Assembly (NCBI GenBank): GCA_964394685.1
Contig: CAYMYO010000001.1
Span: 14 to 64,013, forward strand
Direction: 5' to 3'
Length of the DNA: 64,000 bases
Origin: an uncultured Gammaproteobacteria bacterium
Lineage (GTDB): Bacteria; Patescibacteriota; Microgenomatia; UBA10105; UBA927
Of this stretch, positions 1 to 32,703 are shown piece by piece. Numbering within the stretch: position 1 is the first letter of the stretch; the number at the start of each line of letters is the position of its first letter. Under the pieces are notes generated by a model that saw only the letters and a list, made by a program, of their open reading frames with translations, searched no databases and was not told the origin of the DNA. The position numbers were made by a program, and so were the translations under genes.

Positions 1-1093
1 TGAGGGTTTCGATTCCTTCCTTGGTTTTAGCAGAGATGAACACATGGGGAATGTCACCGGCTAACTCTGATATTTTTTGTCTATCCAGATGCGGTGCAGC
101 ATCAATTTTGTTAAACACCAATACTTCTTTATCCTGCGGAATTTTAAGCTGATCCAGAATATCGTTCACGACGCCGATTTTTTCCGTCATGAGCGGATCT
201 GATGCATCGATGATGTGAAGGACTATATCGGCGTGGACGGATTCCATGAGCGTGGATTTGAATGCTTCTATAAGTGCCGGCGGAAGATTGGCGATAAATC
301 CGATGGTGTCTGATATGAGCACTTTTTTCCCAAGACTCGGCATATAAATCTCACCGACGGTGCTGTCGAGCGTCGCAAACAACGCCTGTTCCACCAAATG
401 TTTTTTATGGGTGAGGACATTAAACAGCGATGTTTTTCCTGCATTGGTATATCCCACAATGGAGATCGTTTGCAGGCCGAGATTTTTTCTATGCTCCATC
501 TGACGTAAACGTGAATCAGCGGATTTGGCAAGCTCATCTTTGGCGCGTTTGATTTCGCGTTTCCAGTGCCGTTTCATAAGTTCCGTATTGGTTTCTCCGA
601 GCCCCCTTGTTCCGATACCGCCGCCCTGACGGGAAAGCACTATACCCATACCGTAAATCCTCGGCCCCATACTCTGCATCCGTGCAAGTTCTATCTGGAG
701 TTTGGCTTCCATCGTCCGTGCATGGTGGGAGAATATAGCAAGGATGAGATCGACTCGGTCCCAGATTTGGATATTCGGCCGTACGGTCCAAAACAATTTC
801 ATCAGTGTAAACTTCTGGCTGGGTTTGAGCTGTCCGTTGAAGATAATGATGTCTGTGGGATGCGTTTTCAGATAAACGCCGACTTCTTCCGCTTTTCCCG
901 GGCCAATATAAGTCGCATCAAATTCTTCACCTTTTTGATGGATAAGGTCCATGACTTGCGCATTCCCAAGTGTTTCAACGAGATGCCATAGTTCGGTGAT
1001 ATCCTCTTCCATGTCCGCACGGCTCATGCGCGGCCGGGAAAGGTAGACAAAGAGTATATTAAGCGGGTGGGAGAGAGTTTGCACTGCGTGCAT
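1..1093 (-). CDS. hflX: GTPase HflX. The C-terminus runs off the left edge of the window. Start taken at the upstream in-frame ATG at 1091-1093; an internal ATG at 1025-1027 is an alternative.
   Basis: The reverse-strand translation has no stop before the window edge. It reads MHAVQTLSHPLNILFVYL...GYTNAGKTSLFNVLT...DTIGFI...FNKID...PHVFISAKTKEGIETL: the HflX N-domain (ARTMEAKLQIELA, GGIGTRGLGET) followed by G1-G4 GTPase motifs. The N-terminal alignment to E. coli HflX (AVLVHIYF matching LNILFVYL) favours the longer start. Confidence 0.85.
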   Translation of the reverse strand, partial: MHAVQTLSHPLNILFVYLSRPRMSRADMEEDITELWHLVETLGNAQVMDLIHQKGEEFDATYIGPGKAEEVGVYLKTHPTDIIIFNGQLKPSQKFTLMKLFWTVRPNIQIWDRVDLILAIFSHHARTMEAKLQIELARMQSMGPRIYGMGIVLSRQGGGIGTRGLGETNTELMKRHWKREIKRAKDELAKSADSRLRQMEHRKNLGLQTISIVGYTNAGKTSLFNVLTHKKHLVEQALFATLDSTVGEIYMPSLGKKVLISDTIGFIANLPPALIEAFKSTLMESVHADIVLHIIDASDPLMTEKIGVVNDILDQLKIPQDKEVLVFNKIDAAPHLDRQKISELAGDIPHVFISAKTKEGIETL

Positions 1094-1192
1094 TATAACA
1101 AGATAAACATTTCGTTACATACTATTGCGCTATGTGTGTGGAGAGGATCAGTTCAGAATTTGATCAAGCGTTATCTATTTGTGGTATAGTAA

Positions 1193-1387
1193 ATGTATTC
1201 CATGGATAGAAAAACTCAATTTCTCAAAGTGTATGCAAATTTGCCATTAGGCGCCAGGGAAGAAATCGTGGCTGTTGTTGACGGTGAACCGTTGACATGG
1301 AAATCTGCAAAATTAGAGATAGAACAGGATACGCTGAAAGGAAAGCAGGTGTTAGAAACATTGACAAACCTTAAGATTTTACCATGA
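1193..1387 (+). CDS. Small hypothetical protein (64 aa), first gene of a coupled three-gene unit. It shows weak apparent paralogy to the next small ORF.
   Basis: Complete ORF. Its stop overlaps the next start (ATGA at 1384-1387). It shares the pattern EI..V.DG..L..K.AKLE..Q...GKQ..E with the following ORF. Confidence 0.45.
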   Translation: MYSMDRKTQFLKVYANLPLGAREEIVAVVDGEPLTWKSAKLEIEQDTLKGKQVLETLTNLKILP

Positions 1388-1632
1388 CTGATAAAACCCC
1401 AGATCAATTAAAATTAACAGAGGAAGAAAAGAATAAACTTAAGGAACTTGTTTTAGCGCGCCTTTCTGTTATGCCGCAAGAAATCTCCATATCCATTGGT
1501 GATAAGAATTTGGACAAGAAAGCACTTACAGAGCATGTTCAATCAGAAGATGAAATTGGTAAACAAATGATGGAAATGGATCTTGAATTTCTTCAGGACC
1601 TCGCGAGAGGTGCTATTTACGGACATGAATAA
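1384..1632 (+). CDS. Small hypothetical acidic protein (82 aa), second gene of the coupled unit.
   Basis: Complete ORF. Its start overlaps the upstream stop, and its own stop overlaps the downstream start (ATGAATAA at 1625-1632). Confidence 0.45.
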   Translation: MTDKTPDQLKLTEEEKNKLKELVLARLSVMPQEISISIGDKNLDKKALTEHVQSEDEIGKQMMEMDLEFLQDLARGAIYGHE

Positions 1633-2278
1633 TTCCCTTCTTGTTACAAGACCAAATCATGACTCAGCGACCAATTATCTCTATCATTGGACTGAACCGG
1701 TCATTGACGAGGCAAAACGAAAACATATCCCTGTATATGATTTGAAAGAAGACAAAGCAACGAAGAAAAACTTTTTGAGTTATTTGCAATCCAAACATCC
1801 GGGTTTTCTTTTTTTAAATGGCCATGGGGACGCTGAAACTGTTACAGGACAAAATTATGACGTTTTATTGGATAAAACCGTGAATAAAAATTTCGTTTCT
1901 GACACTATAATATACGCAAGAAGTTGTGATTCTGGAAAAATATTAGGAAATACACTGGTACAGCATGGAGTTTTGGCATTTATCGGATATACAAGGAAAT
2001 TTATTGTCGGAACGACGCGATTAAACATAACGAAGCCCCTTAAGGATCCATTAGCAAAATTATTTTTGGAGCCCTCCAATCTCATTCCGACGACGATACT
2101 CAAAGGTCATACTGCAGGTGAAGCAGACCGTCGATCGAAACAGGAGATGCTGAAAAATTTTCAGAAAATGATTTCTAGCGCTGGATCATTTGAAGAACGT
2201 TACGCTGCTCGATGGTTGTGGTCAAATATACGAAGTCAAGTAGTGATAGGTGATCAAAACTCATCCATAAATTCATAA
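1625..2278 (+). CDS. Minimal caspase-like (peptidase C14 / clan CD, orthocaspase-like) domain protein of about 217 aa.
   Basis: The in-frame ATG at 1625 overlaps the upstream stop. A hydrophobic strand precedes the His motif FLFLNGHGD and a second precedes the Cys motif TIIYARSCDSG, with 32 aa between them. This matches the metacaspase pattern FFHYSGHG ... ALFDSCHSG, including a PG before the His strand (KHPGFLFLNGHG). There is no signal peptide or TM segment. Confidence 0.55.
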   Translation: MNNSLLVTRPNHDSATNYLYHWTEPVIDEAKRKHIPVYDLKEDKATKKNFLSYLQSKHPGFLFLNGHGDAETVTGQNYDVLLDKTVNKNFVSDTIIYARSCDSGKILGNTLVQHGVLAFIGYTRKFIVGTTRLNITKPLKDPLAKLFLEPSNLIPTTILKGHTAGEADRRSKQEMLKNFQKMISSAGSFEERYAARWLWSNIRSQVVIGDQNSSINS

Positions 2279-2286
2279 TTACATTC

Positions 2287-3246
2287 ATGTTTAAGGGATT
2301 ACTCTTCAGGATTATTGTTTCGATAGTTGTTGTGGTGGGGGCCATTTTCCTTTTCTTCGGACCGGTGGGAACAAAAAAAGAAATGGAGCTGTTTGTGGTG
2401 CCACAGAACGCGGAAAATTTTGACGTGGCGGGGGAATTGAAAAAGCAGGGATTTGTCCGAAGCGAGTGGATTACAAGAATTATTCTTGAAGGTTCAACCA
2501 TCGAGCCGGGAGGATACCGGCTCAATAAATCAATGTGGTTGTGGCAGGTGACATTTACGATGAAAAGCAAACCGAGTCTTGTGTGGGTGACAATTGTTGG
2601 TTGTCAACGCAGGGAGCAGATTGCAGAAGTTTTGCAAAAAGCATTAGGATGGGACCAGACAAAACTTAATCAGTGGAACAACGCATATAAAAGCATGGAA
2701 TCGGATTATTTGGAAGGCGTATATTATCCCGACACGTATTTACTTCCCGTTGATGAAACAGGTGGTCAGGTAGCCAAACGGTTTATTGACCGCTTCAATG
2801 AAAAGTTTGCTCCGTATTCCCAAAAATTTCAGGACGCAAATATCCGGTGGGTAACAGCACTGAAAATTGCATCCTTAATTGAGCGGGAAGCGGGAGGGGC
2901 AAGTGACATGAAGCTTATTTCCGGCATTATCTGGAACAGGTTAAATATTAATATGCGCCTTCAGATTGATGCGACCATGCAATATACAAAAGGTCAGAAA
3001 TCTGATGAAAGTTGGTGGGGAGGAATAGATTTGACGGAAAAATTGAGCGACTCGCCGTACAACACATACCTCTATAAAGGCTTACCGCCTACACCTATTT
3101 GCAGCCCGGGAGTTATCTCCATTGAAGCAGTTTTATATCCGGAGGAAACAGACTGTCTGTATTATATTCATGACCGGAGCCGCCAGATCCACTGTGCAAA
3201 AACGTATGCGGAACATAAAAAGAATATTCAATTGTATTTACAATAG
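2287..3246 (+). CDS. mltG: Endolytic murein transglycosylase MltG (YceG family).
   Basis: N-terminal TM segment (FRIIVSIVVVVGAIFLFF). Motifs EGVYYPDTYLLP, IASLIEREAG, PYNTYLYKGLPPTPICSPG. Confidence 0.85.
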   Translation: MFKGLLFRIIVSIVVVVGAIFLFFGPVGTKKEMELFVVPQNAENFDVAGELKKQGFVRSEWITRIILEGSTIEPGGYRLNKSMWLWQVTFTMKSKPSLVWVTIVGCQRREQIAEVLQKALGWDQTKLNQWNNAYKSMESDYLEGVYYPDTYLLPVDETGGQVAKRFIDRFNEKFAPYSQKFQDANIRWVTALKIASLIEREAGGASDMKLISGIIWNRLNINMRLQIDATMQYTKGQKSDESWWGGIDLTEKLSDSPYNTYLYKGLPPTPICSPGVISIEAVLYPEETDCLYYIHDRSRQIHCAKTYAEHKKNIQLYLQ

Positions 3247-3296
3247 GGTGTGGTATATAATGGGGCGATAGAAAGCCACCTGTCCGGAAAGGTTAG

Positions 3297-3737
3297 GTGC
3301 GTGTGGACAAGGAACGATTACCCCACGGGAAAGCAGTGAACCGGCGAAGGATACTGGCTGAGACTCGGCAAAGAGCGGTGTTTAATGTGGACCAACGGAT
3401 TATCGAGAGAAGCCAAGCGGAGCGGCGTTTGATGGAAATTGATCAGATACTGTCTCCTGATGACCAGACCTTATCTATTATGAACGATCAGGAACGGGAG
3501 CAAACCCGGACCGGTTTGGAGATTGAACGCATTTGGCTGCAATTTAAGTTCAGTATGATCACCCCAGTGGAAAAACAGCGATTACTTGCAGGTAAATTTG
3601 ACGAATTGGAGAAGACCAAACCTGACTTGTACAACTGGTTAGTCGCTAGGAACGAAGACGAGTTGTCTATGGCGGAGCGGATTCGTGATAAGGTGATGCC
3701 ACCCATACGTGTTGCAGGATATTATACAAAGCGCTAG
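3297..3737 (+). CDS. Hypothetical Arg/Glu-rich protein with a GC-rich 5' portion. GTG start; alternative ATG start at 3432.
   Basis: Complete ORF from GTG 3297, with a stop at 3294-3296 just upstream. The N-terminal 45 codons are strongly GC- and Arg-rich, unlike the neighbours. No recognisable family. Confidence 0.35.
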   Translation: MRVDKERLPHGKAVNRRRILAETRQRAVFNVDQRIIERSQAERRLMEIDQILSPDDQTLSIMNDQEREQTRTGLEIERIWLQFKFSMITPVEKQRLLAGKFDELEKTKPDLYNWLVARNEDELSMAERIRDKVMPPIRVAGYYTKR

Positions 3738-3784: not shown

Positions 3785-4456
3785 ATGTACAAACTTTCTC
3801 CGTCCGACTTTGCGTACTTATATGAAGAGTGTAAGTTTTGTTATGTGTTGAAAATCAAACGGGGAGTTATTCGGCCGAGCATGCCCATGCCGGGGGTATT
3901 TTCTGCACTCAATACACGTCTTCAAGGAACGCTTATTGGAAAAGAACTCCGGCAGCTTTCACCAGAACTTCCTGCAGGCATTGTAGAAAGTCAGGAAGGG
4001 CATATAGAATCGCAAGTGATACCCGGAACAAAAGTATATATCAAAGGGAAGTATGATTTGTTAGTCAGGCAGCCGGATAATACGTATCTGATTGTTGATT
4101 TTAAAATCAGCCAGCCAAGTGAGGATAAGACAACCAAATTTCAAACACAACTGCAGGCATATCATTACGCGTTTGAACATCCGGCTCACGGGGAACCGAT
4201 TGTCATAACCAAAACGGGACTCATCATCATGTATCCGGACAAAACAACATTTGAAAACGGCCGGGCAATTCTTGATTTTCCACCGCAGTGGCTGGAAATT
4301 CCCATTGATGAACAAAAATTTTTACGGTTTATGGGAGAGGTGAGTTTGCTTTTGGAAGGACCGACACCCATGGAAAATCCACATTGTCCGTGGTGTCAGT
4401 ATCGGCATTTGGGAGAAAAACTCGCTCATCCGCAAACATTAGATATACCGTTTTAA
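3785..4456 (+). CDS. Cas4/RecB-like PD-(D/E)XK nuclease (DUF83-like) with a putative Fe-S cluster.
   Basis: N-terminal CKFCY and C-terminal CPWC cysteine pairs. Motif II/III YDLLVRQ...YLIVDFKIS (D...D-x-K). QLQAYHYA matches the QxxxY motif of RecB-family nucleases. No cas genes are nearby. Confidence 0.6.
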   Translation: MYKLSPSDFAYLYEECKFCYVLKIKRGVIRPSMPMPGVFSALNTRLQGTLIGKELRQLSPELPAGIVESQEGHIESQVIPGTKVYIKGKYDLLVRQPDNTYLIVDFKISQPSEDKTTKFQTQLQAYHYAFEHPAHGEPIVITKTGLIIMYPDKTTFENGRAILDFPPQWLEIPIDEQKFLRFMGEVSLLLEGPTPMENPHCPWCQYRHLGEKLAHPQTLDIPF

Positions 4457-4733: not shown

Positions 4734-4784
4734 AGTAGTTTGTCTCCTTTCTGTTCACCATTATAACAGATTTTGCAGTATTAC

Positions 4785-4858
4785 GTGATTTCGAACGGTT
4801 ACTCAATGGTTACAAGGCTATTTTCAATCAAATTTTAGTTCGAAATCGTTGAGCGGAA
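4785..4858 (+). repeat. Copy 1 of an ~75-95-nt repeated element with a 10-bp terminal inverted repeat (GATTTCGAAC...GTTCGAAATC). It overlaps the promoter region of the LigT-like gene.
   Basis: GATTTCGAAC at 4787-4796 and GTTCGAAATC at 4838-4847 flank a conserved core GGTTAcaAGGCTATTTTcaaTCAAA, followed by GAGCGGAA. It is near-identical to the copy at 5434-5529. Confidence 0.6.
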
Positions 4859-4887: not shown

Positions 4888-5412
4888 ATGCTTCAGAGTG
4901 TTATCCTTATCCCTATTCCTTCAGCGGATCCTGTTATTGGTGAATGGCGAAAAAAATATGATCACGTAGCACTCCATGGGATTCCGGCACATATTACACT
5001 TCTTTTTCCATTTAAAGAATCATCTCAAATTACTCAAGAAATAATAAAGAAACTCGAAGGTATATTTTTGAAGGTTAAACAATTTCCTTTTACCTTAGAT
5101 AGGATAAATACATTTCCGAACGTGATTTTTCTTGATCCGAATCCAAGAGATGAGTTTATTAAGTTAATCGAAGCAATTGTTCATATTTTCCCGGAAAATT
5201 CGCCCTATGAAGGAAAGTACTCGTCGATAAATCCTCATGCAACTATTGCACAGATAAGTGATATTGAAAAGACAGATTCATTGAAGAAACAAATAGAAGA
5301 AGATATTTCAATAAACTTTCCAATTCAATGTCTGGCAAAGGAAGCATGGTTAATGATTGAAGATGAGAAAGGTGAATGGCATATTCAATCAAAATTTCAA
5401 TTTCTTTCCTAG
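4888..5412 (+). CDS. 2H phosphoesterase superfamily protein (LigT / 2'-5' RNA ligase-like).
   Basis: Two H-x-T/S-x motifs (HITLLF and HATIAQ) with the spacing typical of LigT-like 2H enzymes. GC content is lower than the surrounding core genes. Confidence 0.55.
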   Translation: MLQSVILIPIPSADPVIGEWRKKYDHVALHGIPAHITLLFPFKESSQITQEIIKKLEGIFLKVKQFPFTLDRINTFPNVIFLDPNPRDEFIKLIEAIVHIFPENSPYEGKYSSINPHATIAQISDIEKTDSLKKQIEEDISINFPIQCLAKEAWLMIEDEKGEWHIQSKFQFLS

Positions 5413-5433
5413 TGTCTTGTACCCCCATACTGC

Positions 5434-5529
5434 ATGATTTCGAATGATTGCTCCAGGGTTATGAGGCTATTTTTAGTCAAATATTAGTTCGAAATCGTTG
5501 AATTTGAATTTTCAACTGTTTGAGCGGAA
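5434..5529 (+). repeat. Copy 2 of the repeated element (same orientation as copy 1). It carries a 19-nt insertion that forms an extra small hairpin.
   Basis: GATTTCGAAT at 5436-5445 and GTTCGAAATC at 5487-5496. The extra hairpin GTTGAA-tttgaatt-TTCAAC lies at 5497-5516, then GAGCGGAA at 5522-5529. The copy is preceded by TGTACCCCCA (5417-5426). Confidence 0.6.
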
Positions 5530-6237: not shown

Positions 6238-6300
6238 CCGGATTCCCGTTCGACTCGAAGACTCGCTCAGAGCGCAGCGAACCGGATTATTTTGTGCCGC
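6238..6300 (+). terminator. GC-rich structured element with terminator-like architecture downstream of the 5640 gene.
   Basis: CCGG(attcccg)TTCG ... CGAACCGG is an interrupted inverted repeat with an internal CGCTC-a-GAGCG hairpin, followed by ATTATTTT. It is preceded by TGTACCCCCA (6229-6238), the same 10-mer found after the LigT-like gene. Confidence 0.4.
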
Positions 6301-6397
6301 GTAAGGGAGTCGGACCCTTGTTGATAGATTGAGAATCTACCGTACTAACCGTTATACGAACGCGGCAGAAGTTACAGCTAATTCTATCAATAACCTC

Positions 6398-6946: not shown

Positions 6947-8401
6947 ATGCCGACACTCGACGAACTTCGCCAAGCAAGACTCACCAAACTCAAAAAACTT
7001 GTTGATAGTGGTACTCCCGCGTATCCGGCAGAAACCGGCTCCAGAGAAATGATTGCTGAAGCCAGAACACATGACAAAAAGATTGCAACAGTTGCCGGAC
7101 GCATCATGGCAATCCGGGGACACGGCAAAATTTTCTTTTTGGATTTAAAAGACAGTTCAGATCGGATTCAGATTGTTTGTAAAGTAGATGTGATGGAAGC
7201 AGCTTCATTTTCTCTTATGGAGTTTCTGGATATGGGAGACTTTATTTTGGTTTCTGGGGAAGTAGGAAAAACACAGGCAGGGGAGCTGTCTATTTTTGCA
7301 ACATCTTTCCATTTATTATCTAAATCTCTTCGGCCGCTTCCGAGCGTTTGGCACGGATTAACCGATGTTGAGGAACGGTATCGGCAGCGGTATGTAGATC
7401 TTATTATGAACAAAGAAGTCCGGGAAGTATTTGAAATACGGGCAAAAGTAATTTCGTATTTACGGAGGTTTCTTGATCAAGACGGGTTTATTGAAGTTGA
7501 AACACCGGTACTTCAACCAGTGTACGGCGGAGCATCGGCAAAACCGTTTGTCACGCACCACAATGCCCTAGATACGGACTTGTACCTGCGTATTGCAGTA
7601 GAACTATATTTAAAACGTCTCATTGTCGGAGGATTTGAAAAAGTGTATGAGATTGGCAAGGATTTTCGAAATGAGGGTATGAGCAGGCAGCACAATCCTG
7701 AATTTACCATGCTCGAGTTCTATTGGGCATATGCAACGTATGAAGATCTCATGACGTATTCAGAAAAAATGATCAGCGGACTCATTAAAGAGATTAAACA
7801 CACGATGAAAGTGACGTACCAGGGAACAAAACTGGATTTCACTCCACCATGGCCAAGAGTTTCCTATCGCGATGCAGTACTCGAATACACGGGTATTGAT
7901 ATTGCAATTGCTGACGATGAAAAGAAATTACTTATTGCAATTAAGAAACATAAATTTGTTATTGATGTGACGGGAGCCATTGGGTACGGAGTAATTCTTG
8001 ATACTTTGTACAAAGCAGCAGTGAGACCTAAGCTTATTGGACCATTGTTCTTAACAAAGCGGCCAACAGCATTTGTAACACTTGCCAAACGCCTTCCCGA
8101 AGACCCACGATTTACTGCATCATTTCAACTTCTTGTTATGGGAGAAGAATTATTAAATGCCTACAATGAGCTCAATGACCCGCAGGATCAGGCAGTCCGC
8201 TGGCGGGAATCAGAGGAACTAGGGAAACGCGGACAACAGGAACATGAATCCTATGACGCTGACTATATCAGGGCGCTCGAATATGGCATGCCGCCAACGG
8301 CAGGATGGGGTATGGGAATAGACAGACTTCTTACTATTTTAACGGATCAGAAATCCATCAAAGACGTTATTTTATTCCCAACTCTCCGGCCGGAAGTCTA
8401 A
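6947..8401 (+). CDS. lysS: Lysyl-tRNA synthetase, class II.
   Basis: N-terminal OB anticodon-binding domain followed by class II motifs (FRNEGMSRQHNPEFTMLEFYWAY; GMGIDRL). Confidence 0.95.
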   Translation: MPTLDELRQARLTKLKKLVDSGTPAYPAETGSREMIAEARTHDKKIATVAGRIMAIRGHGKIFFLDLKDSSDRIQIVCKVDVMEAASFSLMEFLDMGDFILVSGEVGKTQAGELSIFATSFHLLSKSLRPLPSVWHGLTDVEERYRQRYVDLIMNKEVREVFEIRAKVISYLRRFLDQDGFIEVETPVLQPVYGGASAKPFVTHHNALDTDLYLRIAVELYLKRLIVGGFEKVYEIGKDFRNEGMSRQHNPEFTMLEFYWAYATYEDLMTYSEKMISGLIKEIKHTMKVTYQGTKLDFTPPWPRVSYRDAVLEYTGIDIAIADDEKKLLIAIKKHKFVIDVTGAIGYGVILDTLYKAAVRPKLIGPLFLTKRPTAFVTLAKRLPEDPRFTASFQLLVMGEELLNAYNELNDPQDQAVRWRESEELGKRGQQEHESYDADYIRALEYGMPPTAGWGMGIDRLLTILTDQKSIKDVILFPTLRPEV

Positions 8402-18678: not shown

Positions 18679-19350
18679 TTATTTTTGTTTGAATAATTTT
18701 CCATCCCGGATATATAGTTTTCTTCGTGTCCTATCTGCGACGTCCTGCTCGTGTGTGATGATGACAACCGTTACCTTGTCTTCGCGGTTCAGTTTTTCAA
18801 ATAAATCCATGATCGCGTTTCCGTTTTTAGAATCCAAATTGCCGGTTGGTTCATCAGCAAGAATCACCGCTGGCTGCATAATTAATGATCGGGCAATAGA
18901 CACCCGTTGCTGTTGACCGCCTGAGATTTTATTCGGAAATGATTTTTCTTTTCCGGATAATCCGAATTTTTTTATTAACTCCATTGCGCGGTCTTTTGGA
19001 TGAAATGAAAGGGCACGGCGCGCGTAAATTGTTGGAAGAAGAATATTTTCCAAAAGGGTAAGTTTATTAATGAGGTTAAATTGCTGAAACACAAATCCGA
19101 TAAATTCATTCCGCGCGTTGGATAATTCGTTGTCAGAATACTTAGATATATCGCGACCATTGATGGAAACAGTACCTTTAGTTGGGTTATCCAGTAACCC
19201 CATGATATGCATGAGAGTTGATTTTCCGGATCCGGAAGGACCAAGAATTGCGGTATATTCTCCCTTTGTGATTTCCAAACTGACATCGTCGAGTGCCTTG
19301 AATTCTTCTCCGGAGATGTCGTACTGTTTTGTAACATGAGAAAGTTTAAT
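18679..19350 (-). CDS. ABC transporter ATP-binding protein (MacB/LolD-type).
   Basis: Walker A GPSGSGKST, signature ISGGQQQRVSIAR, Walker B ILADEPTGNLD. Confidence 0.85.
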   Translation of the reverse strand: MKLSHVTKQYDISGEEFKALDDVSLEITKGEYTAILGPSGSGKSTLMHIMGLLDNPTKGTVSINGRDISKYSDNELSNARNEFIGFVFQQFNLINKLTLLENILLPTIYARRALSFHPKDRAMELIKKFGLSGKEKSFPNKISGGQQQRVSIARSLIMQPAVILADEPTGNLDSKNGNAIMDLFEKLNREDKVTVVIITHEQDVADRTRRKLYIRDGKLFKQK

Positions 19351-20398
19351 CATAGAGGATATCACCCTCAGCAAGACCGCCAGTAATTTCCGTCATGTCA
19401 TCGGATTCAATGCCGATTTGTACATATTGCTTCTCTTTTCCTTTAATCGTTTTTCTCATGACATAGTTTTTTCCGTTCTCGCTTTTTAAAAACCGGATGG
19501 GAATAGCAAGTACGTCAGGTTTTTCGGCAGTTGTGAATGTTGCATCAGCGGTCATGCCAATCCGATATTTTGCTATCGTATCAAGTGGAAAGCGGACATC
19601 AACTTCATAGACCGTGCTTGTTTCACCTGTCTTCGGAGTGAAAGCTACTGATTGAACGAATCCTTGAATATGGGTGTCAGGAAATGCATCAAATACAATA
19701 TCCGCCGACTGGCTGGAAGTTATTGTGGATACCTCTGTTTGATCAGGTAAAACAGAAAGATAGATGGAATCCGGATTTACTATTTCAAATTCCGCTTGCG
19801 TTGGTGTGACATTTACCCCAGCAATTGGAGACCCTACTTTTGTGACAACACCGGCAATTGGTGATATAAGCGTTGCGTATTTAAGAGCAATATTTTTCAG
19901 TTCTACGTCTAAAACCGCGCTGTTTAGATCAAATTGTGCCTTTTGAAGAGCTCTATCGGCATCATTCCTTTGATCCCACGTCAATCCCCAATATCTTTGG
20001 CTCGGTTCCCGGTATTCATCTTTGGTTTGATCAAAATCCCTGCGTTCGTTTTCATAGGTATTTAAATATTTTTGAAGATTTTTTTGAAGTTCAGCCTGAT
20101 CAAGTCCGGCGATAGCCTGATATTTAGTTACAACATCACCTTCTTTTACCCCGACCAACGCAAGGAGCCCTGAACTTTGAAACCGAAGGGTAATTTTTTC
20201 CTTGGCATCCAGTTTACCCGTCACCGTAAGGGTTTGTTTAATAGTTTCTCTTTTGACTGTGTGTGTAACCTCTTTTACGGCCTTTTTTGTTTGTTGTCCA
20301 AATTTATTCCATCCGACCAAAAGTACAACAACAAAAAGTGCAATGATCCAGGTAATTTTTCGTTTGTTGACAAAAGATAATAATTTCTGTACAACCAT
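19346..20398 (-). CDS. Efflux periplasmic adaptor subunit (HlyD/MacA family).
   Basis: N-terminal TM anchor, a coiled-coil hairpin region, then beta-barrel/lipoyl-like segments (LISPIAGVVTKV). Confidence 0.75.
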   Translation of the reverse strand: MVVQKLLSFVNKRKITWIIALFVVVLLVGWNKFGQQTKKAVKEVTHTVKRETIKQTLTVTGKLDAKEKITLRFQSSGLLALVGVKEGDVVTKYQAIAGLDQAELQKNLQKYLNTYENERRDFDQTKDEYREPSQRYWGLTWDQRNDADRALQKAQFDLNSAVLDVELKNIALKYATLISPIAGVVTKVGSPIAGVNVTPTQAEFEIVNPDSIYLSVLPDQTEVSTITSSQSADIVFDAFPDTHIQGFVQSVAFTPKTGETSTVYEVDVRFPLDTIAKYRIGMTADATFTTAEKPDVLAIPIRFLKSENGKNYVMRKTIKGKEKQYVQIGIESDDMTEITGGLAEGDILYD

Positions 20399-20404
20399 AC
20401 TACT

Positions 20405-21424
20405 ATGAAAAAATTAAAACTTAAGTTTCTTAAACACAAAAATCTGTTTTCGTTTTTTGTTCCAGTAGTTATTATAGCACTCCTCATCGGTGTCATTATT
20501 GTTAAGCGAAATAGAGATTATATGGTGACATTGAAAACAAAAACCATACCGGAAATAATAGCGAAGGTAACAGGGGATCCGACGATTAAAGTAAAAGAGG
20601 TCGCGAAATTGAAAAAAGTTAGCGGCATATACCAATTTGAACTCAATCTTGATATTGGCGGTACAGCAAGAACGTTTACGTCATACATGACGAAAGACGC
20701 AAAAATATTTTTTACCACAGGAAGTGTTGTGAGTGAACTTGGGAAAGCACCCGCAGCGGCTGGAGCACAACAAGAGCAACCGAAAGTGACATGTGCGGAT
20801 GTAAAAAAAGCAGATGTGCCGAAAGTGTCCGGATTTATCGTTGCGGATTGTCCGTTTGGCCTTCAGATGCAGCGATTAATGAATAAGGCTATTTTGGAAC
20901 AACCAGCGCTAAAGACTGTTTTTGATATCAAATATATCGGTTCAATTGTTGATGGAAAAATTACCGCTATGCATGGAGATAAGGAAGCACAAGAGAATCT
21001 GCGCCAGATTTGTATTCGGGAAGAACAGAAAAATTTCTATTGGTTGTATGTTTCTTGTTATATGAAAGAAGGTAAATTTTCAGAATGTCTTGCATCATCC
21101 GGAGTAAATACCGCTAATGTGAACGCGTGTATGACTGACAGCAAGCGTGGAAATGTATATGCACAAAAAGACTTTGATTTAGCAAATAAATTTAATATTG
21201 GCAGCTCACCAACATTACTTGTAAATGATTCCCAAATCGTGTCAGAATTTGATTTTGGAGGAAGAACTGCGGATGCGTTAAAACAAGTTGCATGTTGCGG
21301 ATCTAAAACACAGGGAAGTTTCTGTTCAAAGGCGTTGTCTACGGATCAAGTGGCTGCAGCATTTTCTGTGACTGAAGCAGCCGCAGCAGGGGGAGCAGCC
21401 GCAGCAAACTGCGGAGCAAATTAA
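20405..21424 (+). CDS. Membrane-anchored thioredoxin-fold (DsbA-like) protein with an Ala/Gly-rich C-terminal tail.
   Basis: N-terminal TM segment. FIVADCPFGLQMQ resembles a DsbA-type active-site region with a single Cys. The C-terminal low-complexity tail is AAAAGGAAAANCGAN. Confidence 0.4.
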   Translation: MKKLKLKFLKHKNLFSFFVPVVIIALLIGVIIVKRNRDYMVTLKTKTIPEIIAKVTGDPTIKVKEVAKLKKVSGIYQFELNLDIGGTARTFTSYMTKDAKIFFTTGSVVSELGKAPAAAGAQQEQPKVTCADVKKADVPKVSGFIVADCPFGLQMQRLMNKAILEQPALKTVFDIKYIGSIVDGKITAMHGDKEAQENLRQICIREEQKNFYWLYVSCYMKEGKFSECLASSGVNTANVNACMTDSKRGNVYAQKDFDLANKFNIGSSPTLLVNDSQIVSEFDFGGRTADALKQVACCGSKTQGSFCSKALSTDQVAAAFSVTEAAAAGGAAAANCGAN

Positions 21425-21435
21425 CGAGAAGATTT

Positions 21436-21478
21436 GAGGTGTTTAACAGCTGCTTCGGTGACCATGCGGCCGCGGGGA
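21436..21478 (-). other. Relic duplicate of the ruvB 3' end (about 43 bp, roughly 39 of 42 positions identical to 22840-22881). It would encode ...PRGRMVTEAAVKHLKSSR*.
   Basis: The direct nucleotide repeat GTTTAACAGCTGC.TCGGTGACCATGCGGCCGCGGGGA occurs both here and inside the true ruvB C-terminus. Confidence 0.7.
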
Positions 21479-21525
21479 ATAAATAAACTTAGAGCATTTT
21501 GATTACTTAATGTTATAATTTCTTC

Positions 21526-22713
21526 ATGGCAGAAGCTCAGCCCGTTTTAAATTTGAGGGAAATACCATTTTTTCCATTATCACCCAGTGATGAATTACAG
21601 CGTATTTGTGAATTAGGTAGACAAGTAGATTGTTCTGTTATACCAATTCCAGGTGCAGGATATGTTGTTCATAAAAATGATTCACCGTATATTGCTGAAG
21701 CACCCCTCGTTTTACTTGATTTTGATGATACAGGCGCACAAACAACATCTGATAAAGTTCATTGTTGGGAGGAAATACAGGCATTAGGAATTCCTCAAGA
21801 AGTGGTTAAAGAGTGCGATAAAATTTCTCGTGTATATCTTGGAGATGAAGAACCAATGTATGAACCTGAACTAGAGATGCGTTTACTTTCTCGAGCAAAA
21901 CAATTGGTAGATTCTCATAAGAGTATCGATAAAATACTTGCATCTGTACAAAAACTTCGCGCAGAATTAGTTGCAACAAGAAATTTTGATCAACAACAGG
22001 TAGAAACCGCAATTCGAAATATATATGATCGGACTAGATACACGTCAACGTTATATCCTGATACCATCGAGTCATTACGAAGACTTCATGGAAACGATGA
22101 GATTCCAACAAACGTAGCTATACTTACCTATGGAGACCCAGTATTTCAATTTACAAAGACATCCCAACTTCTTCGTGAAGGTGTTGTTTCGACAGTTTTT
22201 CTAACAACGACTAGAAAAGGAAGATTTTTTCAGGAAGCTTTACATGAAAATCCCTTTCAGCATTTTCCTTTAGTTTATCGATACACAGAAACTCCTCGTG
22301 GGATTGGGGTTGATTTTAAGAATTGGCAGGTTATGGTTGTGCTTTTTGATGATGATCCTAAACAAGTTACGAGTTTTAACAGTGTAGCAGAGCATGAAGG
22401 AATAACGGGATTAGGAGTCGTGCGTGTCAGAAGAGCTGGTGTTAAACGGGCAGAGAAGGATACGCCAATGGGAGCTTTGGTTACAGAAATTCAACCATCT
22501 GATACTTACCTTGATGCAAATTTATTTGAACAGGCAACGAAAGAATTAGAAATACGGGTATTAGAAAACTTTCTAGTCTCAGCGATAAAACAGTCTGGAG
22601 TTGATGTACTTACAGATAAAGATGTTGCAAGGATTTTTGAAATAGTTACTTTAGATAGAGAGATGACTTCAGACACATTACGAGTGTATCTTCTTGAAAG
22701 AACTAAGACATAA
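21526..22713 (+). CDS. Hypothetical protein with an N-terminal HAD-like DxD motif (cargo of the putative insertion).
   Basis: LVLLDFDDTGAQTT resembles HAD motif I (hhhDxDxT). The rest of the protein is unrecognised. Confidence 0.35.
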   Translation: MAEAQPVLNLREIPFFPLSPSDELQRICELGRQVDCSVIPIPGAGYVVHKNDSPYIAEAPLVLLDFDDTGAQTTSDKVHCWEEIQALGIPQEVVKECDKISRVYLGDEEPMYEPELEMRLLSRAKQLVDSHKSIDKILASVQKLRAELVATRNFDQQQVETAIRNIYDRTRYTSTLYPDTIESLRRLHGNDEIPTNVAILTYGDPVFQFTKTSQLLREGVVSTVFLTTTRKGRFFQEALHENPFQHFPLVYRYTETPRGIGVDFKNWQVMVVLFDDDPKQVTSFNSVAEHEGITGLGVVRVRRAGVKRAEKDTPMGALVTEIQPSDTYLDANLFEQATKELEIRVLENFLVSAIKQSGVDVLTDKDVARIFEIVTLDREMTSDTLRVYLLERTKT

Positions 22714-22747
22714 CGTTTTGTAATAGATTCGAAAGTGGTATTTTCCG

Positions 22748-22761
22748 TATGCACGTGCATA
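22748..22761. promoter_or_regulatory. 14-bp perfect palindrome TATGCACGTGCATA.
   Basis: Read directly from the sequence; it contains a CACGTG core. It lies in the 92-bp gap between the cargo gene and ruvB. Confidence 0.3.
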
Positions 22762-22805
22762 GCAAAAAGGAAACATTTTATTCCAACGGGATTGCTTCGC
22801 TCATT

Positions 22806-23831
22806 TTATTCGCTCGCAATGACATGCTCTTTTGAAGCAAGATGTTTAACAGCTGCGTCGGTGACCATGCGGCCGCGGGGAGTGCGTTTGAGAAATCCAA
22901 GCTGCATGAGGTACGGTTCGAGTATTTCTTCAACAGTACCAACATCTTCTGATATGGTCGCAGCTAATGTTTCAATTCCTATTGGTCCGCCATTATGTTT
23001 TTCAATAATGGTTGTAAGAAGTCGTCTATCAGAAGCATCAAGACCCTCTTTATCAATTCCAAGAAGAACAAGTGATTGCTCAAGAATAGATGCTGTTATC
23101 TCCGGAAGCCCTGCGACTTGCGCAACGTCTCTACTTCGTTTTAGTAGTCGTAGAGCTATACGCGGAGTGCCCCTACTTCGTTTAGCCAGTTCCAATTTTG
23201 CTTTTGCATCAATTGCGATATGAAGTTTTTTTGCCGCTTGGGTTATGATGTGTTCTAAATCAGCTGGTTGGTAAAAAGATAGCCGTTCAATAACCCCAAA
23301 CCGGTCCCGCATTGGAGATGAGAGAAGTCCCGCACGTGTCGTCGCTCCGACAATGGTAAATGGAGGAAGATCAAGCCTGAGTGTTCGCGCTGATGGTCCT
23401 TTTCCGATGATGATATCAAGAGCAAAATCCTCCATTGCCGGATAGAGTGTTTCCTCAACGAGTTTATTAAGCCTATGAATTTCATCAATAAATAAAATGT
23501 CATGAGGTTTGAGATTGGTGAGTATTGCAGCAAGATCTCCTGCCCGTTCTATCGCAGGACCAGATGTGATTCTGATGTTTACTTTCATTTCTTTTGCAAT
23601 CAGGTGTGCGAGCGTTGTTTTGCCTAAGCCCGGCGGTCCATACAAAAGAATGTGTTCCAATGCTTCCTTGCGTTTTTTGGCAGCAGTTATTGCGACGTGA
23701 AGACTTTTTTTTACTGCTAACTGACCGTAGAATTCATCCCAAGAAGACGCACGTAATGAAGTGATTATACGTTCTTCTTCAGGAGGCGTTGTATCAAAGA
23801 GAATATCTTCTTTCTTTTTGATTTGTTTCAT
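22806..23831 (-). CDS. ruvB: Holliday junction branch migration helicase RuvB.
   Basis: AAA+ Walker [10 protein letters not shown], Walker [11 protein letters not shown], RuvB C-terminal winged helix. Confidence 0.95.
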
Positions 23832-23832
23832 A

Positions 23833-24405
23833 TCATTTTCCTAATAGCTTTAAGGCTTCACGAAGTTTTTGTTCCAGTGTGACTGTTTTTGCAGGTATTT
23901 TTTTGATAATTGTAATAACTTCGTTTCTCACAAATCCCATGGAACAAAGCGCATCTATGAGTTCTTTGGTTTCACCTTCAAACGCGTCATCTAAATTTAA
24001 ATCCTGTAAACTACCCAGTTTACTTTTGAGTTCAATGATAATTTTTTGTGCATTTTTTTTCCCAAGTCGGGGAATAGTCGTAAAAAATTCAACATCGCTA
24101 TGGGTAACTGCACGTTCAACTGCGTTTACTCCACGATCAAGAATGGGCAGAGCCGTTTTAGGACCAATACCGGAAACAGTAATGAGAAGTTCAAATAAGG
24201 TTAACTCTTCTTTGCTTGCAAATCCATAGAGATCAAATGCATCTTCCCGGATATGACTATGAATATACAAGAGTACTTTTTTGTTTACTTCGAGTGTTTT
24301 AGCAAATTGGTTGGTTATATATACGTTGTATCCTACGTCACCTACAAAAAATAACGCTGGGTTTTTATGAAATAAAAATGGTATGGCTTTCAGCGCGCCT
24401 ATCAT
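23833..24405 (-). CDS. ruvA: Holliday junction DNA-binding protein RuvA.
   Basis: MIGALKAI...[11 protein letters not shown], HhH motifs [13 protein letters not shown]-terminal domain III. Confidence 0.9.
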
Positions 24406-24890
24406 AAAAGTTTTTGTTTCATACGATACGAAAACGCATGGGTCAAGGCTATTGCGAGCGCGTCAGCTACATCATCAGGCTTTGGTGTTTTGGTTAGATG
24501 CAGCTGCCGGGTTACCATATATTGTACCTGCTTTTTGTCTGCTTTTCCATCGCCTGTTATACACCGTTTTACCTCAAGAGGACTATAGGAAAACGTTTTG
24601 ATTTTTTTTAGTGAACACGTAAGAAGAAGTACTCCGCGTGCTTGTCCAACGGACATAGCTGTCGTTGCGTTGGTTGCAAAAAACAATGTTTCTATGGCAA
24701 CATCATCTGGTTTGTATTTGGATAGAAGTATCGATACAGCTTCATGGATATCAACAAGTCGCTGGTCATCAGGTTTTTCTTTTTTTGTTTCAATGATGCC
24801 GTAGGCAATAGGTTTGGGTCCCGTGGGTGTTTCGGAAATGACACCCCAGCCAACACGTGCAGTTCCCGGATCAAGCCCCATAATAATCAT
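24402..24890 (-). CDS. ruvC: Holliday junction resolvase RuvC.
   Basis: [17 protein letters not shown]... is the RuvC catalytic N-terminus. It overlaps ruvA by 4 nt. Confidence 0.9.
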
Positions 24891-24949
24891 GGTACAGTTA
24901 TAGCACATTCTCTTTTGTTTTTCTTGCCAAAACCGTATACTTACATTCG

Positions 24950-25294
24950 ATGCCTTTCATTCTTAAATTTATCATCACGCTTGCCTCAACTCTTGCTGTT
25001 GTAGTAGGTACGAGTCTTGTCTGGCCAAAAATAATGAATCGTCCGATTCCAGATGCGCTTGAACAAGTGCAGAAAGCGGTATTGGGGACTGAAATCGGAC
25101 AACAAGCAAATGATAAATTGGAATCTCTGCATATTTCATCATCTCCTGGTGAGATAGTGAATACTGCTTTTGGACAAGTGCAGGAGAAAGCACAAGAGGT
25201 AGTGACGAGGGAAATTATTATCCAAGTAGTGAAAAAAATTGAAACACTTGCTCCTGACCAGCAACAAGCTATTAAAGAACAAATTTGCAAATAA
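24950..25294 (+). CDS. Small membrane-anchored hypothetical protein.
   Basis: N-terminal TM segment ([18 protein letters not shown]) and a Gln-rich tail. Confidence 0.35.
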
Positions 25295-31984: not shown

Positions 31985-32119
31985 ATGAAAAGAATGACTT
32001 CGTATCTGCTCAGACAATACAAAAAAATGTCCGGGGATAAGAAGATCCGGATTGCGATGAAATTGTCAAAACTCGTCCGTGATGTAAGGAGATGCGGTAT
32101 GCAAGTCACCGGAGCCTAA
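31985..32119 (+). CDS. Small ORF (44 aa) upstream of the NTase gene. It may be a gene fragment or a small partner protein.
   Basis: ATG 31985 to TAA 32117-32119: MKRMTSYLLRQYKKMSGDKKIRIAMKLSKLVRDVRRCGMQVTGA. Too short to appear in the supplied ORF track. Confidence 0.2.
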   Translation: MKRMTSYLLRQYKKMSGDKKIRIAMKLSKLVRDVRRCGMQVTGA

Positions 32120-32124
32120 TTGAT

Positions 32125-32703
32125 ATGGAAGCTGAGGAATCACTTCTCATTACACTTGCAGAATTCTTTCATGCCCATGCTATTCCGTATATGATTACCG
32201 GCGCATGGAGCGTTATTTTCTATGGAAGACCCAGGGCGTCTCATGATATTGATTTTGTCGTTGATCTATTTCCGAAAGATGTCCAGAGGACGGTTCAGGC
32301 TCTCGCGTCACTTCCCAGTGAGTTTACAGTATATCCGGAGTCAGTCAGGGAAGGAATTGAACAAAGAAATATTTTTCAGATTTATCATAAACCGACGATA
32401 ATGAAAATCGACGTGTGGCTTTTGACAAATGATCCGTTCGACCAAGTGAGATTTAAACGGAAAAAATACGTGAACATCATTGGGAAAAATGTGTCTATTG
32501 CGTCAGCCGAAGACACCATTCTTCAAAAGCTTAGGTGGTACAAAGAAGCAAAAATTGAAAAACACATTATTGATGCCGCATTTGTGTATCAGATTCAAGG
32601 GAAACGACTGGACAAAAGATATATTACGGCGTGGGCGAAAAAACTTGGTATCACAAGATACATCAATAAATTGGGATCAATAAATCTTGAGCAATACCTC
32701 TGA
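32125..32703 (+). CDS. Minimal nucleotidyltransferase-fold (Pol beta superfamily) protein.
   Basis: ITGAWSVIFYGRPRASHDIDFVVD matches the hG[GS]...DhDh NTase signature. ATG 32125 has GGAG 8 nt upstream; ATG 32092 is the alternative start. Confidence 0.5.
   Translation: MEAEESLLITLAEFFHAHAIPYMITGAWSVIFYGRPRASHDIDFVVDLFPKDVQRTVQALASLPSEFTVYPESVREGIEQRNIFQIYHKPTIMKIDVWLLTNDPFDQVRFKRKKYVNIIGKNVSIASAEDTILQKLRWYKEAKIEKHIIDAAFVYQIQGKRLDKRYITAWAKKLGITRYINKLGSINLEQYL

Follow-up and report, generated by a model that had tools for sequence, protein, structure and literature searches.

The locus described here lies in a 64,000-nucleotide (nt) stretch of contig CAYMYO010000001.1 (GenBank assembly GCA_964394685.1), hereafter called the window, which stems from a metagenome-assembled genome of the Patescibacteria (Gottesmanbacteria-like). 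It comprises ruvB with ruvA and ruvC upstream, a convergent gene coding for a DsbA/thioredoxin-like membrane-anchored protein and, between ruvB and this neighbour, a segment of 1,361 nt (21479-22839) with a single open reading frame (ORF). This ORF, the cargo gene, codes for a protein with a HAD-superfamily fold and is oriented opposite to ruvB (Table 1). The segment is bracketed by a direct repeat of 42 nt, the copies of which (21437-21478 and 22840-22881) are identical at 40 of the 42 positions and have a spacing of 1403 nt. An original prediction, made from the sequence alone, had described such a repeat around a 1.36-kb one-gene segment, and with the bounds refined as given here this description is confirmed. 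A search for further copies, which it had proposed, was run over the 64 kb with a 39-nt core and up to three mismatches and returned only these two sites, with 0 expected (100 shuffles); within the window the repeat is thus not dispersed.

Table 1. Features of the ruvB/DsbA-like locus in window coordinates.
Feature	Positions	Strand	Remarks
DsbA/thioredoxin-like membrane-anchored protein gene, left neighbour	20405-21424	+	ORF of 339 amino acids (aa); weak thioredoxin-type Pfam matches
Stranded ancestral ruvB 3' end, pseudogene fragment	21421-21478	-	Translation: 18 codons, PRGRMVTEAAVKHLKSSR, plus stop
Cargo-specific upstream flank, 47 nt	21479-21525	+	No homology in L106, L109, L107
Cargo gene, HAD-superfamily fold with extra N- and C-terminal parts	21526-22713	+	395 aa; motif I D65-x-D67-x-T69
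Cargo-specific 3' flank, 18 nt	22714-22731	+	Bounds from blastn and alignment; homology to L106/L110 from 22732
ruvB 3' untranslated region with palindrome TATGCACGTGCATA	22732-22805	-	Common to L106/L110; core CACGTGCATACG conserved
New ruvB tail, 10 codons plus stop, in place of KSSR plus stop	22806-22839	-	ASKEH-type tail also in P0028/L106 and P0047/L110
Right repeat copy, within functional ruvB (14 codons)	22840-22881	-	End of Pfam RuvB_C domain (match 261-331)
ruvB, right neighbour and target gene	22806-23831	-	341 aa; RuvB_N, AAA_lid_4 and RuvB_C, E-values 1e-78 to 1e-23

The right copy of the repeat codes for the final residues of the conserved RuvB_C domain and is not, as had been assumed, the terminus of ruvB, since the gene extends 34 nt past the repeat and thereby runs for ten more codons into the bracketed segment. 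The left copy, in turn, continues to position 21421 and forms a complete alternative ruvB end with its own stop codon. The closest RuvB proteins, 92-94% identical over residues 1-331, have lengths of 334-335 aa and end in KSSR, KSFR or KQQ, i.e., in the same type of tail as the remnant; the variants P0042 and P0044 end in ASKNS, and the RuvB of the window falls into the 90% cluster of P0031 (P numbers denote RuvB homologs, L numbers the contigs and loci that were compared). The view that the 3' end of ruvB was targeted and regenerated stands insofar as ruvB was kept intact, and fails insofar as its extreme tail was replaced and not fully regenerated.

Both copies also have GCTGTT (Ala-Val328) in common (22849-22854 and 21446-21451). 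All sampled relatives carry GCA or GCC plus ATT or ATC (Ala-Ile) at this position, and 15 of 15 aligned close RuvB proteins have isoleucine there. As judged from these codons, the common GCTGTT suggests either that the duplication is a true one in the window lineage or that the stranded fragment and functional ruvB have undergone gene conversion. A reading of the two copies as homeologous ends from two different lineages was set aside because the lineage-specific GCTGTT is found in both. Two restriction sites fall within the repeat (21463-21476 and 22866-22879), one for NotI, GCGGCCGC, and one for SacII, CCGCGG. Both are expected to be infrequent in a genome with a G + C content of about 40%, and the left insertion junction is located 4 nt from the SacII site. 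In another RuvB homolog, P0070 (476 aa, on a 158-kb ENA contig), some 135 residues of the AAA+ domain are repeated in tandem within the protein; a precomputed Resolvase annotation on this protein was discarded as a spurious weak match.

Comparison with relatives devoid of the insert, which had been suggested as a check, was carried out and revealed two empty sites. In L109, the locus of P0031, with a RuvB 93% identical to that of the window, ruvC-ruvA-ruvB is directly followed by the convergent DsbA-like gene without any insert: ruvB (1628-2635, + strand) ends in KSSR, the DsbA-like gene occupies 2632-3663 on the - strand, and the two stop codons overlap by TTAA, exactly as the stop of the remnant overlaps that of the DsbA-like gene in the window. 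According to blastn, positions 24983..22839 and 21477..19300 of the window are collinear with 476..2620 and 2577..4814 of L109, respectively; a stretch of 44 nt present there in a single copy (2577-2620) aligns to both copies of the window, which is 1.36 kb longer. The second empty site, L009, from a Gottesmanbacteria metagenome-assembled genome with a RuvB 83% identical, shows the same synteny with a spacer of only 53 nt. That an unrelated gene was inserted at the 3' end of ruvB, as had been proposed, is borne out by these empty sites, and the insertion is lineage-specific.

The window belongs to a metagenome-assembled genome, and the locus varies between strains; the arrangement might in principle be a chimeric join of two strains via a shared 42-mer. 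However, the Logan contig L007 (2,507 nt), an independent assembly from another run, covers both copies and both flanks with 100% identity to the window, which argues that the arrangement is not a mis-join. The copies moreover differ at two positions, so that the window allele offers no exact shared 31-mer for a mis-join in an assembly graph, and the other bracketed loci described below were likewise found in independent assemblies; an assembly artefact is thus extremely improbable. A further Logan contig from a second run, L008 (1,408 nt), corresponds exactly to positions 21449-22856 and breaks inside both copies; its length equals the repeat spacing plus 5 nt, and it stops just one base short of the position of the G/T difference, 22857. 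In the simplest reading, these ends imply a co-existing population variant at or around 22857, most simply with T in place of G; a mixture of empty-site and circular forms would fit as well.

Among relatives, the slot between ruvB and the DsbA-like gene, syntenic orthologs of which lie beside ruvB in L009, L106 and L109, is hypervariable, being either empty or occupied by an EamA transporter gene, the HAD-fold gene or another ORF. L106 (RuvB P0028, 91% identical) and L110 possess the window-type ASKEH tail of RuvB, followed by about 74 nt that are homologous to positions 22732-22805 of the window and include the palindrome core, and then by a convergent EamA transporter gene and the DsbA-like gene; neither a HAD gene nor a ruvB remnant nor a second repeat copy was found in these two loci. 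In L107 (RuvB 93% identical, tail KQQ) another, co-directional ORF lies behind ruvB, and the single repeat copy is 95% identical to the left and 90% identical to the right copy of the window, as counted on the alignment. The ruvC-ruvA-ruvB genes of the window are themselves mosaic, with the best match being L107 for ruvC (up to 95.5% identity), L106 for ruvA (up to 92.7%) and, over the final 150 nt of ruvB, again L107 (90.7% versus 85.3% for L106), and the columns of the RuvB protein alignment display the same patchwork. Along positions 22884-24908, compared with L106, L107 and L109, the nearest relative changes from L107 to L106 and back to L107.

Since the homology between the window and L106 ends at 22732, 18 nt past the stop codon of the cargo gene, the cargo-specific part comprises positions 21479-22731 (1,253 nt). 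Its upstream flank contains an extended -10-like motif, TGTTATAAT, at 21511-21519, 6 nt before the ATG of the cargo gene, which from its sequence might be a putative promoter; a consensus promoter scan did not call it, and a promoter and terminator scan of 21300-22950 gave no more than expected by chance. On the other side of the cargo gene, the 14-nt palindrome that had been reported near the ruvB-proximal junction was confirmed at 22748-22761 as the sole exact copy in the window. The region around it folds modestly (-7.7 kcal/mol, z-score -1.65) and probably forms a weak hairpin between convergent genes. As the palindrome together with the new ruvB tail (22732-22839, 108 nt) occurs in L106 and L110 with a different gene, it is not specific to the HAD cargo. 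A role as a cassette-specific site was rejected on the grounds of its conservation 3' of ruvB in these EamA-carrying loci and its weak folding, and the presence there of both palindrome and tail likewise leaves the proposal of a decayed or in-trans mobilised cassette without support.

The bracketed arrangement is not confined to ruvB. When 450 nt up- and downstream of the cargo homologs were compared in 11 loci, representing 10-11 independent genomes, four of these loci were found to be bracketed, namely the window and, from three other Patescibacteria genomes, L004, L102 and L104. In the window 42 nt of the ruvB 3' end are duplicated. The 99-nt repeat in L004 covers intergenic sequence, including a hairpin and a promoter-like stretch, together with the initial 13 nt of a ychF-like ORF. 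In L102, 42 nt of the 5' untranslated region of the next gene, its ribosome-binding site included, occur twice, and in L104 about 27 nt that hold the last 8 codons and the stop of a convergent PFOR-beta-like gene. In this last case GELARGWR is encoded by the functional and GELAKGWR by the stranded copy, each before a stop codon, and the alignment score was reached in 3 of 2000 shuffles. The brackets recur in independent assemblies (L005, L006 and L091 for L004, L103 for L102, and L105 for L104). The four repeats, besides differing in length (about 27-99 nt), have no sequence in common, and the inner flanks of the four units (47/126, 184/39, 15/85 and 48/19 nt) are unrelated and show no conserved ends. 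The remaining 6-7 homolog loci are tight, operon-like contexts without repeats. As the homologs are thus bracketed by unrelated local sequence of varying length, the repeats look like target duplications and not like attachment (att) sites.

In L004, a 14-codon pseudo-start of ychF, MSLSVGIVGLPNVG, is found directly behind the second copy, followed by about 110 nt of unrelated sequence and the real start, MGLSVGIVGLPNVGKST (7385-7580). Therefore, the 5' end of ychF had been displaced at the same spot in an earlier event.

The original prediction had taken the locus for the signature of site-specific integration. On this reading, an attP site of a small cassette would mimic the ruvB 3' end, the two copies would represent attL and attR, and a tyrosine or serine recombinase would have acted in trans or been lost since. 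Such an event would accord with the targeting of the 3' end of a gene that stays functional while its end is displaced, as is the case for elements residing at tRNA genes or gene ends, and the 108-nt arm with its palindrome beside the ruvB-side copy, which occurs in three lineages with different cargo, resembles an att-proximal arm. However, L106 and L110 have this arm without a second copy of the repeat, the right copy is collinear with the ordinary ruvB of relatives, no further copy of the repeat exists in the window, and homologous cargo is found at four unrelated targets between repeats without common sequence. Neither a recombinase nor a transposase was detected with Pfam in the segment, as had been predicted, or in the window ORFs scanned (including 10 further ORFs), to which the proposed search for recombinases elsewhere was confined. 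There were also no terminal inverted repeats at the ends of 21479-22839, no conserved ends and no att-like motif, and no phage, plasmid or viral carrier of the cargo was found; Rfam (at the gathering threshold) and ARAGORN identified only a tRNA-Glu gene at 6294-6366 and no tRNA or tmRNA target near the insert. With no recombinase in the segment or the window ORFs scanned, no conserved ends and unrelated repeats at the homolog loci, the proposed signature is not supported, and site-specific integration is regarded as unlikely.

Known classes of elements were compared as well. A site-specific integrative element would require a recombinase in or beside the segment and an att core reused by related loci, of which the former was not found in the segment or the window ORFs scanned and the latter not among the four bracketed loci, and a DNA transposon or insertion sequence is contradicted by the lack of a transposase and of terminal inverted repeats and by a duplication as long as 42 nt. 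The attC sites of integron gene cassettes are imperfect palindromes of 57-141 nt with RYYYAAC/GTTRRRY cores behind the ORF; here there is just the 14-nt palindrome common to L106 and L110, and neither an array nor an integrase.

Taken together, the locus is best explained, with moderate confidence, as an insertion with long target duplication, in which imported DNA would have been joined by host recombination or repair without the need for a recombinase or transposase. Insertions of this type are characterised by variable repeats of more than 30 bp, an empty site in a relative and the lack of mobility genes; the repeats, mostly 46-47 bp long with some of about 400 bp, often cover the start or stop of a neighbouring gene that remains intact, and most of the species concerned are naturally competent (PMC2853133). 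The locus shares this anatomy (Nobusato et al. 2000, Gene 259:99; Furuta, Abe & Kobayashi 2010, NAR 38:2428, PMC2853133): it is a small unit (below 20 kb) between direct repeats of more than 30 bp that occur in only two copies within the 64 kb and overlap the stop or start of an intact neighbour, it lacks an integrase and a transposase, the empty site L109 has a single copy, and its lineage is thought to import DNA. Patescibacteria commonly carry pili and competence genes to which such import is ascribed (PMC12455944). In contrast to the published cases, in which the inserts are restriction-modification genes and double-strand cutting by the restriction enzyme was proposed, the cargo has a HAD fold with no nuclease signature and no match to restriction-modification or defence genes, the host belongs to the Patescibacteria, and the extreme tail of the target gene was replaced and not fully regenerated. 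Restriction-modification cargo was, however, a sampling criterion of the published survey and not a demonstrated requirement of the process (PMC2853133).

Under an insertion with long target duplication, the ancestral ruvB would have ended in VKHLKSSR, its stop codon overlapping that of the convergent DsbA-like gene, and the incoming 1.36 kb of DNA would have contained a new 10-codon ruvB tail, the short hairpin region and the HAD-family gene with 47 nt of its own upstream sequence. One junction may have been formed at the last codons common to both types of ruvB tail (AAACAYCTT), and the other would have been non-homologous, i.e., illegitimate, attaching the sequence 47 nt upstream of the cargo ATG to codon 318 of ruvB. 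The 42 nt between the two joins would then have finished on both sides, which would account for the duplicated 42 bp of the ruvB 3' end. As a consequence, ruvB retains the complete winged-helix domain and runs on into the new tail, and the old end is left stranded by the DsbA-like gene, intact but useless. The imported DNA may have come from a relative, and the host recombination or repair machinery may have made the join, with a staggered break, template switching or sister-chromosome bridging as candidate routes.

The stranded old end is described equally well by 3'-end displacement through homology-facilitated illegitimate recombination, which was proposed for effector-immunity modules of the type VI secretion system and for Rhs loci (PMC5361080). 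There, too, a new 3' end arrives together with a downstream gene and without a dedicated recombinase, and the old end persists downstream as an orphan fragment that has a stretch in common with the functional gene (PMC5361080). However, those systems concern polymorphic toxins with selected diversity of their tips and long conserved anchors, whereas here 18 codons of a housekeeping helicase are affected and nothing resembling a donor-type tract is seen upstream of the repeat. Hotspots without integrases, in which the gene content changes through recombination at the core genes on either side (Oliveira et al. 2017, PMC5635113), are similar with respect to a single slot that is empty or holds EamA, HAD or another ORF and to the mosaic nature of the flanking core genes (PMC5635113); yet the double homologous recombination invoked for them leaves no duplication, and one of 42 nt requires that at least one of the joins be non-homologous. 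Integrative elements targeting 3' ends, cargo-only satellites included, likewise have repeats derived from the 3' end of a target that stays functional, but differ from the locus described here in having a recombinase and a conserved att core and ends, and here the targets differ between genomes. The type of insertion is one already described, and what is new is its cargo other than restriction-modification genes and its occurrence in a further phylum.

Several points weigh against an insertion with long target duplication as outlined above. The mechanism of this class has never been demonstrated. The GCTGTT of both copies, being present in no sampled relative, points to a true duplication of recipient sequence or to later homogenisation. 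Furthermore, an L106-like donor with a ruvB anchor predicts an L106-like right copy and upstream region, which is not seen: the tail and hairpin are L106-like, but ruvB over its final 150 nt (see the identities above), like the right copy, is L107-like or lineage-specific. The 108-nt tail-hairpin region is about 83% identical to L106 by our own count, and the flanks 86%; such flank-like divergence fits an old event, and the identity of the copies at 40 of 42 positions would then need gene conversion. These figures fit an old event in a common ancestor with L106 and L110, in which the HAD gene and the remnant would later have been swapped for EamA; alternatively, the event may have been recent and the donor may lie outside the sampled genomes. 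Finally, brackets at 4 of 10-11 independent loci of one rare family would be more than is expected of a purely passive passenger, as judged from the homolog loci alone; this is striking, and it may reflect either something special about the HAD family or simply its recent mobility.

The GCTGTT in both copies would also be accounted for by a Campbell-type spread within one lineage, in which a circle excised via the repeats in a sister strain was integrated at an empty site by a RecA-mediated single crossover over the 42 nt, donor and recipient thus belonging to the same lineage. A homology of about 42 nt is near the lower limit of efficient RecA recombination, which speaks against this route. 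That L008 (21449..22856) breaks inside both copies would agree with it, although the ends of this contig are more simply explained by one single-nucleotide polymorphism (G/T, 22857) in a co-existing strain. Restriction-modification units flanked by repeats are known to amplify through these repeats (PMC2853133), but a process of this kind accounts for the spread of the insert and not for its origin, for which a first illegitimate event is still required. Campbell-type spread is hence considered rather unlikely as an explanation of the locus.

The cargo protein itself had been predicted to contain a HAD-like DxD motif and to be uncharacterised, both of which were borne out. No meaningful match was obtained in Pfam, NCBIfam, PHROGs, PADLOC or PDB sequences; ten distant relatives gave no match in Pfam or NCBIfam except for one weak NIF match (E-value 0.0017), and no relative was found in phage and plasmid protein records or in a scan of viral contigs. 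A word-indexed search retrieved only 23 relatives, all from Patescibacteria where named, and the profile search that had been recommended, run exhaustively against 1.84 billion representatives, 119 clusters at an E-value of at most 1e-3 and 31 at most 1e-30. It is thus a sequence-orphan family to which no curated HAD sequence model matches. An AlphaFold2 model based on the alignment of the 23 sequences (predicted local distance difference test (pLDDT) 89.6, predicted template-modelling score 0.87) resembles HAD hydrolases, dehalogenases and phosphatases among the PDB matches listed by Foldseek (best E-value 6e-6, target-normalised template-modelling scores mostly 0.5-0.6), while the viral fold matches in BFVD are HAD 5'-nucleotidases and phosphatases and, more weakly, polynucleotide kinase/phosphatases. 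At least 90% of the 23 sequences retain D65, D67 and T69, and K231 and D275-D277 are invariant; K231 and D275-D277 may represent HAD motifs III and IV. Residues 1-60 and 330-395 are the parts additional to the fold; a single-sequence model of the helical C-terminal part (residues 321-395; pLDDT 61.5) was too poor for a fold search.

The protein is a rare sequence orphan of the HAD fold and probably a phosphatase, with nucleotides or other small molecules as the best guess for its substrates. Next to the cargo homologs (L001, L101, L102, L004, L099), genes for NUDIX proteins, Ham1/ITPase, PF00702 HAD hydrolases and APH-type kinases recur in different genomes, which hints at a role in nucleotide house-cleaning or at shared variable islands of small hydrolases.

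With regard to the recurrence of brackets, it is conceivable that the HAD-like gene is itself mobile and that its product drives its own insertion, e.g., by acting on DNA ends, thereby generating long and variable duplications. There is no other mobility gene present, 4 of 10-11 loci of a very rare family (119 clusters among 1.84 billion) are bracketed single-gene units, and HAD-fold 3'-phosphatases acting on nucleic-acid ends do exist, with polynucleotide kinase/phosphatases being found among the weaker viral fold matches. The fold matches are, however, those of ordinary small-molecule HAD hydrolases and nucleotidases, and the abundance of NUDIX, Ham1 and HAD genes nearby points to nucleotide housekeeping. 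The four units moreover have no conserved termini and unrelated inner flanks, 6-7 loci are operon-like and lack repeats, and unrelated genes are bracketed as well (the LigT-like gene of the window and the spacer modules of the L102 island, see below), which renders self-driven insertion very unlikely. In a broader formulation, the HAD-fold family would constitute a single-gene mobile unit of Patescibacteria that enters gene ends and promoters with duplications of about 27-99 bp, by means of either its own product or a trans-acting system; this, too, is quite unlikely.

Repeats also surround genes other than the cargo. In the window, a gene at 4888-5412 (174 aa; 2'-5' RNA ligase/LigT-like 2H phosphoesterase, Pfam E-value 2e-20) lies between the copies of a 74-nt direct repeat (4779-4852 and 5428-5501; 82% identical, spacing 649), the unit of which folds as a hairpin through GATTTCGAAC...GTTCGAAATC. 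An ORF of the PD-(D/E)XK nuclease family (3785-4456, Pfam E-value 5e-10) is found two genes upstream of this LigT-like insert, and an AbiEii/nucleotidyltransferase-like ORF (weak match, E-value 3e-4) at 32092-32703. In the first 7,000 nt of L102 (1-7000; GCA_964435535.1, CAYSZF010000016.1), single genes coding for a PEP-utilizer, a NUDIX protein, the HAD-like protein, an APH kinase and a HAD protein are split by repeated spacer modules. These modules include a hairpin, TTCAGCTCAAAAAA...TTTTTTGAGCTGAA, in three copies, a 95-nt unit, likewise in three copies, whose internal stem sequence varies between copies with complementarity being kept, an element of about 125 nt bounded by GCAGTATATGCA and TGCATATACTGC, and 26-nt inverted repeats on either side of a 197-aa HAD gene. 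This region resembles either a cassette array or an island rich in miniature inverted-repeat transposable elements; its repeat motifs (ATATACTGCAAACGTTAT etc.) are absent from the window.

The gain of single genes in the absence of recognisable mobile elements is poorly understood in the streamlined, uncultured Patescibacteria, and the empty L109 and the filled window provide a clean before-and-after pair for such an event. Here a groundwater-type bacterium gained a single gene beside an essential repair gene, which was left undamaged, at the price of a stranded gene end, and the rare unannotated HAD-fold family to which this gene belongs is thereby flagged for biochemical analysis. Should this family be a mobile unit after all, it would represent a tractable case, outside restriction-modification genes, of the long-unexplained class of insertions with long target duplication. 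As a non-nuclease cargo is found in the same anatomy four times, the underlying process seems to be more general than restriction-modification genes; insertions of this type may result incidentally from DNA uptake and repair, and could serve as a marker of recent gene gain in surveys.

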